Positions 6,468 to 6,756 are shown, counted from the stretch's first letter. The stretch: 40,527 bases of DNA from an uncultured Candidatus Saccharibacteria bacterium (GCA_964634615.1 CAZWLQ010000005.1:1-40527), one strand, 5' to 3'. The notes: generated by a model from the letters alone, not told the origin. Program-made: numbers and translations.

Positions 6468-6528
6468 ATCTGCTTTGTTGTAAGTAATTCGTTTACTAAT
6501 AACCCTACTAATAAATCTAATCACTAAA

Positions 6529-6593
6529 CTTGGGTCATCCCTGTGTAAGGGTGTGCCGCTTTCGCGACCCACCCTTTGCAAGGATTCCCCAAG
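6529..6593 (-). promoter_or_regulatory. 65-nt extended hairpin inside the ~250-nt 5' leader of the PG-binding protein gene
   Basis: Minus-strand RNA reads CUUGGG-GA-AUCCUUG-CAAA-GGGUG-G-GUCGC-GAAA-GCGGC-A-CACCC-UUACA-CAGGGAU-GA-CCCAAG, giving 23 bp and a GNRA loop. Two G-U pairs exist only on the minus-strand transcript. Confidence 0.6.
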
Positions 6594-6725
6594 CGTAGTT
6601 TGCGTGAGGTAGAACCGTCTCACGGTCATGCCGTAACGTCTCATAAGAGTCGCGCGGGAATCGGTATATGAAATTATCAACGAGCAGTCGTGCAGGAAAA
6701 AACGTTCGCTTCTGAATTGCACTTG

Positions 6726-6756
6726 ATTATATAGGCACTCGGTCTAAATCCCGCAA
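6726..6756 (-). promoter_or_regulatory. Sigma70-like promoter TTGCGG-17 nt-TATATAAT for the 4506-6467 gene
   Basis: Read on the minus strand. It lies ~250 nt upstream of the ATG at 6467. Confidence 0.55.

Follow-up and report, generated by a model that had tools for sequence, protein, structure and literature searches.

A conserved, structured and lineage-specific 5' leader precedes the gene for a secreted peptidoglycan-binding protein in uncultured bacteria

Introduction

What purpose is served by the roughly 250 nucleotides (nt) that separate a promoter from the start codon of a gene for a secreted peptidoglycan-binding protein in an uncultured bacterium? The gene lies in the window, by which we mean the whole 40,527-nt stretch of DNA analysed here, which belongs to a 714-kb genome in 42 contigs whose relatives, known as metagenome-assembled genomes, carry the labels Patescibacteria, Paceibacterota, Parcubacteria or Kaiserbacteria. 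An earlier note had read the intervening region as a structured leader containing a 65-nt rod-like hairpin that folds only in the mRNA sense, along with two overlapping, switch-like hairpins, and had found no riboswitch consensus that fitted. It must therefore be asked whether the region is a leader at all, whether it switches, and, if it does not, what it may do instead.

Results

The gene served by the leader and its neighbourhood

The coordinates of all features are collected in Table 1. The 653-aa product carries a long acidic region besides its PG_binding_1 domain (Pfam PF01471, E 3.6e-11). Of 61 related genomes, 57 have a match to it (E <= 0.001); the matches are full-length in the genus of the leader and in several other families, while outside those families they often span the conserved N-terminal domain only. 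The product is probably the cell's main wall-bound surface protein and highly expressed. In three Paceibacteria, the top five signal-peptide genes by expression include ones for secreted proteins that carry peptidoglycan-binding domains (PMC10936435) and that resemble the 653-aa protein at least in type.

Directly upstream of the surface-protein gene lies the gene for a 264-aa winged-helix protein, an arrangement kept in 88 of 110 loci from many Paceibacteria families, and it is possible that this protein is a dedicated regulator. The two genes form a conserved pair with an unusually long intergenic region between them. In one related locus, an ordinary Rfam match to L10_leader is located downstream of the surface-protein gene (L091:3670-3830, plus strand; 45.3 bits, cut-off 44).

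Table 1. Positions of the features discussed (window numbering unless another locus is named)
Feature	Coordinates	Strand	Description
Surface-protein gene	4506..6467	-	653-aa acidic secreted protein, signal peptide and PG_binding_1; served by the leader
Start region	6468..6493	-	weak hairpin GUAA/UUAC, then A-rich unpaired stretch ending ..AUAUG
Block 6	6494..6514	-	doublet UUAUUAGUA-GGG-UUAUUAGUA; invariant columns
Block 5	6518..6526	-	UAGUGAUUA; first three bases (UAG) close the rod; UAGU invariant
Rod	6524..6598	-	unbranched hairpin; core of the earlier note 6529-6593; closed by invariant CUA/UAG
Block 3	6596..6604	-	CGCAAACUA; last three bases (CUA, invariant) form the rod base
H3	6613..6627	-	5-bp hairpin GACCG-UGAGA-CGGUU, conserved loop UGNGN
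Block 1	6667..6689	-	unpaired GACUG..UUGAUAAUUUCAUA; consensus cGACUGnaCnUUGAnAAU-n3-AUA (UUGAnAAU..AUA); invariant columns in alignment A1
H1, 5'-proximal hairpin	6690..6722	-	GUGCA...UGCAC with inner stem
Promoter P2	6726..6756	-	TTGCGG (6751-6756), 17 nt, TATATAAT (6726-6733)
TTATCCACA box	6762..6770	-	same 9-mer as DnaA box; 28-30 nt upstream of the P2 -10
Promoter P1 (predicted)	6816..6844	-	TTGTTC (6839-6844), 17 nt, TG-n-TACACT extended -10 (6816-6821)
Upstream co-oriented gene	6898..7692	-	264-aa protein, C-terminal winged helix (weak HTH_DeoR match)
Pilin promoter	box 32319-32327, TATAAT near 32284-32289, pilin ATG 32225	-	type IV pilin
A7 hairpin	L057-L121, about 110-195 nt upstream of orthologous starts		17 pairs, GUCGAUA loop

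A conserved promoter with a DnaA-like box

The promoter that had been placed about 250 nt upstream of the start codon is indeed present (P2). Although a consensus promoter scan does not call it, its TATAAT box is kept in 14/14 orthologous loci of the genus, 230-306 nt before the ATG. The predicted start is near 6719-6722 in the window, and leaders counted from P2 measure 224-300 nt across the genus loci. A second predicted promoter, P1, sits about 100 nt upstream of P2, and a TGnTAnnnT box is found at the equivalent place in the genus orthologs, including genome G012. Tandem promoters are typical of S-layer genes.

Upstream of P2, the TTATCCACA box is found at fixed spacing in 14/14 orthologous loci, and also in G012. 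The box is identical to the DnaA-box consensus 9-mer, yet its copies are single and none is at dnaA, whereas DnaA boxes are usually clustered at oriC or at the dnaA promoter. Only five exact copies exist in the 714-kb genome (window positions 6762 and 32319; C4:2346, C10:10942 and C25:3138 outside the window), and the contig with dnaA (C16) holds 1-mismatch sites only. Downstream of each of the five copies a promoter-like element can be read in the same orientation, and the genes that follow are those for the surface protein, a pilin, rpoB (with a leader of ~200 nt), a very basic 34-codon ORF ahead of secA (with a leader of ~170 nt that contains GUCGACAUUACUAAAAC) and one unknown gene. The pilin promoter follows the same design as that of the surface-protein gene: its box, which reads TTATCCACA, TTGTCCACA or, in one genome, TTATACACA, occurs in 14/14 genus genomes and precedes TATAAT by 28-30 nt in the spacings counted. 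The box points to control at the DNA level at P2, through a predicted binding event, and TTATCCACA-type boxes look like a shared, putative activator site for surface-structure genes.

A non-coding leader restricted to one genus

The ~250 nt behind P2 are a real, conserved, strand-specific, structured and non-coding 5' leader. Folded as a whole (293 nt), the leader reaches -95 kcal/mol (z -4.7). The alternative that the region is coding, with the GTG at 6722 as the true start, had been raised in the earlier note and fails, as the signal peptide of every ortholog begins at the position that corresponds to ATG 6467. Since, moreover, an in-frame stop lies 9-213 nt upstream of the start in 11/11 orthologs checked (L022-L033), the open frame from GTG 6722, a codon only 3 nt past the P2 -10 box, is accidental. 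The rod described below differs in length between species by non-multiples of three, which excludes a conserved reading frame, and together with the in-frame stops of the 11 orthologs rules out a coding leader or an upstream ORF.

To the 3' two-thirds of the leader we fitted a covariance model (R1), leaving G012 out of the training. R1 finds exactly one match per genome in 15/15 genus genomes, always before the surface-protein gene; in the held-out G012 the match is directly before its copy of the gene and all parts are present. No match was obtained in 86 other genera of the order, and a plain DNA search returns a single copy of the leader in the window's genome. From 5' to 3', the order of elements in the genus is P1, TTATCCACA box, P2, a variable segment, block 1, a variable spacer, H3, CGCAAACUA, the rod, UAGUGAUUA, the UUAUUAG doublet, a small variable hairpin and an A-rich tail ending in UAUG.

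The leader is undescribed and lineage-specific, without a match to a known RNA family. Rfam 15, run over the whole window at gathering thresholds, reports two tRNAs only, and between 6300 and 7000 at E up to 10 it reports two chance-level matches that both fall outside the leader; the leaders of ten related loci likewise have no match. The view that no known riboswitch consensus applies is thus borne out by Rfam, which also gives no signal for SRP RNA, 6S RNA or a T-box, candidates that we rejected. By its position, its non-coding nature and its compensatory sense-strand pairs the element belongs to the conserved structured cis-acting mRNA leaders, and its transcription with the gene is presumed from promoter conservation and from the G-U pairs of the sense strand.

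Two hairpins selected as RNA

The core of the rod folds exactly as had been claimed, with helix P1 (CUUGGG/CCCAAG), a 2x2 GA/GA loop, AUCCUUG/CAGGGAU, an inner helix and a GAAA cap. Its 65 nt reach -40.8 kcal/mol, as opposed to -17.2 +/- 2.5 for shuffled sequences (z -9.3, 0/200 as good), and -44.8 kcal/mol when the CUA/UAG base is included. The claim that the fold is strand-specific also holds: the complementary strand of the core reaches -31.6 kcal/mol only, and the sense strand is the more stable one in 13/14 species, with 1-6 G-U pairs versus 0-2. Sense-strand stability and G-U pairs together indicate that the rod helix has been selected as RNA, in the mRNA sense. In 14/14 orthologs a single unbranched hairpin of 34-86 nt stands between the invariant CUA and UAG (34, 34, 35, 50, 50, 51, 52, 71, 73 in four species, 75 and 86 nt), and neither its loops (GAAA, CCAC, UUGG, GCAA, CAUGU and others), nor its internal loops, nor its length are conserved in the 14 species. 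We considered the rod as an intrinsic terminator and rejected this, because no U-tract follows it.

Because MAFFT with RNAalifold, applied to whole leaders or to the rods, misaligned the variable hairpins and recovered H3 alone, we folded each species separately and mapped pairs between species. Mapped on G011, the rod pairs comprise 16 unchanged, 2 one-sided changes, 8 double changes and 1 broken pair, and in a comparison of G014, G006 and G011 no substitution breaks a rod pair. Homologous leaders thus display compensatory changes both in the rod and in H3, on a covariation basis of 15 species and about eight rod types.

H3 is the best supported helix by covariation, being found by RNAalifold as well. 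Its cells are paired in 98.6% of cases, four of its five pairs are compensatory and 0/500 shuffles are as good, its 5' arm reading GACCG, UACUG, UAUCG, AGUCG or AGCCG; kinship inflates such shuffle tests, but slid-partner controls (for H3 and for the A7 hairpin described below) and the held-out G012 argue against an artefact. Two overlapping hairpins at 6603-6627 had been put forward as switch-like. Both can be drawn, and one of them, GACCG/CGGUU, is the covarying H3, but the other, CGUGAG/CUCACG, is paired in 75% of cells in the 14 species, is equalled by 163/500 shuffles and shows one double change only, so that the proposed switch lacks the support of covariation.

The rod and H3 are internal and do not lie at the predicted 5' end. 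The hairpin that does, H1, begins 3-8 nt past the -10 box in 8/14 species; the remaining six have a weak one or none. A search of all column pairs, those linking the conserved blocks included, yielded no other helix with comparable covariation: at best, block 1 and the doublet can form a 4-bp stack in which two pairs are of more than one type, and the remaining candidates are 4-bp stacks with at most two varying pairs. Long-range pairing of block 1 with the doublet or with the start region was rejected, as it amounts to a mostly invariant 4-bp stack only.

Conserved unpaired blocks and the start region

Block 1 begins 41-47 nt after the -10 box in 11/14 species, and no covarying partner was found for it. 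It was also considered as the -35 element of a third promoter and rejected, since no -10 element lies at 16-18 nt in any species. As for the doublet of block 6, two of the three genome copies of TTATTAGTA are within that block and a strict UUAUYAR doublet is unique to this leader in the genome. Doublet spacings of 7, 11 and 12 nt occur. A metagenome pattern scan for UUAUUAG doublets returned AT-rich chance matches, with the surrounding leader present in 0/80 loci examined. The last 11-19 nt before the AUG are unpaired in 14/14 species (14-19 nt in 13/14), the AU-rich tail is weakly structured (z 0.1 to -3.7), and no Shine-Dalgarno sequence precedes ATG 6467.

Ribosome and RNA-decay machinery

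In two members of the genus the 16S rRNA ends in ...GGAUUUAGUCAAAU instead of ...GGAUCACCUCCUUA, and after helix 45 it reads GGAUUUAGUCAAAUGACAAUCG with no CCUCC nearby (L131 of G013 and L132 of G002). It follows that the genus lacks the anti-Shine-Dalgarno, a statement resting on G013 and G002 since the 16S of the window's own genome is not assembled. This agrees with the loss of the anti-Shine-Dalgarno in a subgroup of Parcubacteria, bacteria whose bS1 has 3-4 domains (PMC9297842). The genome encodes a protein with four S1 domains as well as RNase J and RNase Y; RNase E/G was looked for in the genome and not found. No complement of UUAUUAGUA or of UAGUGAUUA occurs in the 16S of G013 and G002. 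UUUGAC in block 1 can be matched to GUCAAA in the 16S tail, a pairing of 5-6 nt only that fails in G013 and is to be taken as a lead only.

Related leaders outside the genus and at the pilin gene

When the gene's leaders from outside the genus were surveyed (69 in all), GTCGAT was present in 35 against an expectation of 3.3, and TTATTA in 34 against 7.3. An alignment of 16 orthologs was too divergent for a locus search, so a 7-sequence alignment was used. Twenty leaders from outside the genus can be aligned around a hairpin, A7, which stands between GCCAACUA and UAGUGUGAA, flanks like those of the window's rod, and which has an invariant GUCGAUA loop and an invariant tandem U-G/G-U. Its cells are paired in 92.6% of cases, nine of its 17 pairs are compensatory and 0/500 shuffles reach it. 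Past UAGUGUGAA, these leaders contain further hairpins, with AUUAC next to the AUG. The A7 motif has no Rfam match and we found no description of it; its distribution is narrow, a model built on it (R2) matching 2/151 genomes sampled across the order and 0/151 across the class.

The A7 leaders resemble that of the window in that they precede the same gene, place a rod between GCCAACUA and UAGUG, and have motifs of the UUAUUA(G/C) type as well as AUUAC near the AUG, but they differ in their fixed rod length, invariant GUCGAUA loop and tandem U-G/G-U, and they lack H3. The two versions are connected by their shared flanks and by an intermediate, the sister genus G015, which combines block 1 with the GUCGAUA motif, and not by a score, for R2 fails to detect the window's genus. 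It thus appears that the gene has long had a structured leader whose sequence turns over fast, and that the genus version lost the fixed loop, with the rod lengthening in the window's clade.

A relaxed form of the doublet occurs in three clusters in the genome, one of them immediately preceding the start codon (AUG) of the type IV pilin gene. The pilin leader (32226-32262, minus strand) is short, carries the relaxed motif as UUAAUUAGGUUAAUCAGUGAU and ends in UUAAUUAGGUUAAUCAGUGAUCCUU-AUG, thereby echoing two motifs of the surface-protein leader, AGUGAU and the UUAUUAG doublet.

Discussion

Function of the leader

The reading that we favour, to which we would assign a probability of roughly 0.45, is that the leader constitutes a constitutive module for stability and translation, presenting a decay barrier for a very abundant mRNA and an AU-rich landing pad for ribosomes. 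Decay in the 5'-to-3' direction is known to be blocked both by stable hairpins in a leader and by a ribosome-contact site remote from the start codon. The stable hairpins of this leader would slow decay by RNase J and RNase Y and would leave the AU-rich stretch upstream of the AUG accessible, such that ribosomes without an anti-Shine-Dalgarno could load there, probably via bS1, whose gene is present. Probable contact sites for a protein or the ribosome are the loop of H3 and the conserved blocks, and the combination of a strong promoter, the upstream TTATCCACA site and the leader would ensure a very high output. In this mechanism the start of transcription, the high expression, the stabilisation and the route of ribosome loading are all presumptive. 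It is conceivable, albeit rather unlikely, that UAGUGAU and the UUAUUAG doublet recruit ribosomes without an anti-Shine-Dalgarno to those few mRNAs in this lineage whose leaders are long. If so, an AU-rich module would act as a functional substitute for the Shine-Dalgarno sequence on the most abundant surface-protein messages, co-ordinated with a dedicated class of promoter (TTRTCCACA-N28-30-TATAAT).

A simple stabiliser does not accommodate all of the observations. H1, which occupies the classical position of a stabiliser, is present in 8/14 species only, and stabilisation leaves unexplained why the unpaired blocks and the H3 loop are fixed beside a rod that drifts. This pattern fits a specific binding partner, and the main rival to a stability module is therefore a regulatory leader bound by protein, in which an RNA-binding protein on the H3 loop (UGNGN), on UUAUUAG and UAGUGAUUA, or on both, adjusts translation or decay. 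Perhaps it could convey feedback from envelope assembly or couple expression to the cell cycle. Autoregulation through the 5' UTR of an S-layer gene is known from slpA of Thermus thermophilus, and in the genome studied here the doublet is essentially limited to this leader and the pilin leader, as might be expected of a specific site. Yet no candidate RNA-binding protein was identified, the surface protein itself being an unlikely RNA binder since it is extremely acidic and secreted; the doublet spacing varies, and the observations would suit constitutive binding just as well as regulated binding. We regard such protein-mediated control as possible, though at odds distinctly short of even. Should the unpaired blocks instead be DNA operators, recognised by the winged-helix protein or by whatever binds the TTATCCACA box, the hairpins would be secondary. 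The synteny of the winged-helix gene (88/110 loci), the nearly fixed distance of block 1 from the -10 box (41-47 nt) and the location of the TTATCCACA box at the same promoter would all fit operators, but H3 and the rod have clearly been selected as sense-strand RNA, blocks 3 and 5 flank or close RNA helices through CUA/UAG, and an inconstant doublet spacing is unusual for a dimeric DNA binder, all of which renders an operator function unlikely.

A riboswitch or other ligand-sensing RNA, responding for example to a cell-wall precursor or a cyclic dinucleotide, would account for a long, conserved and structured leader before a cell-wall-associated gene; its absence from Rfam makes a new class conceivable, and the stretch 6603-6627 does allow two overlapping hairpins to be drawn. 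However, when we looked for a riboswitch core we found no covarying multi-helix arrangement, junction or pseudoknot, the loops and internal loops of the rod being unconserved and its length varying 2.5-fold. Nor is there an expression platform: the leader has no terminator-like site, no Shine-Dalgarno sequence to mask and no supported alternative pairing, the second hairpin being no better than shuffled sequences. The element occurs, moreover, in one copy per genome, at one gene and in one genus. What is conserved is a single small hairpin plus single-stranded blocks, a pattern that suggests contact with a protein or the ribosome, together with stabilisation, rather than a ligand pocket. The suggestion of a switch is therefore one that we do not uphold, ligand sensing appearing very unlikely. 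Least likely of all is that the region is a separate small RNA, or the rod a remnant of a mobile or repeat element upstream of the gene: a promoter of its own and strong hairpins would suit a small RNA, but no terminator lies between the rod and the ATG, the conserved blocks reach the start codon, and the single copy in each genome is always joined to the surface-protein gene.

Significance

The Parcubacteria/Paceibacteria are uncultured, and in the subgroup without an anti-Shine-Dalgarno most genes appear to be leaderless. The leader thus bears on how the few long-leader genes are expressed and on how abundant envelope proteins are controlled in such cells. It adds an RNA motif that is new to the databases, and it provides a single-copy, conserved test object with covarying hairpins, defined unpaired motifs, a sister element at the pilin gene and a shared promoter box.

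Comparison with known systems

In Firmicutes, 5' stabilisers that act against RNase J/Y include the aprE leader hairpin and the STAB-SD of cryIIIA. Like the hosts of these elements, the genome studied here encodes RNase J and RNase Y, with RNase E/G not detected. The likeness is limited by the fact that STAB-SD pairs with the anti-Shine-Dalgarno, which the 16S of this genus lacks (as seen in two relatives), and by the 5'-terminal hairpin H1, which is not universal here. The ydaO/c-di-AMP riboswitch (RF00379) is comparable as a long structured leader upstream of a gene for a secreted protein with a peptidoglycan-binding domain. The present leader differs from it in having no Rfam match, conserved junction, pseudoknot or expression platform, and in being dominated by a variable rod.

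In lactobacilli, long structured 5' UTRs and tandem promoters confer long half-lives on S-layer mRNAs (reviewed in PMC3666127). Lactobacillus acidophilus slpA and L. crispatus slpB share with the locus described here a hairpin-forming UTR, two tandem promoters (predicted in the present case) and, as product, a wall-attached secreted protein that is abundant or, in the present case, presumed to be so (PMC3666127). There is no similarity in sequence or structure between the lactobacillal leaders and this one; they end in a normal Shine-Dalgarno sequence whereas this leader has none, the 16S of two genus relatives being without an anti-Shine-Dalgarno, and several unpaired, sequence-conserved blocks are a feature of this leader and not of the lactobacillal UTRs. 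By analogy, the role of the slpA and slpB leaders, a long half-life and a high yield, would be the very role proposed here. If the leader is merely a stabilising UTR, it would be an ordinary, previously undescribed example of a known strategy, and the closest described systems are indeed the stabilising 5' UTRs of S-layer genes with tandem promoters, along with the 5' stabilisers found in organisms that use RNase J/Y.
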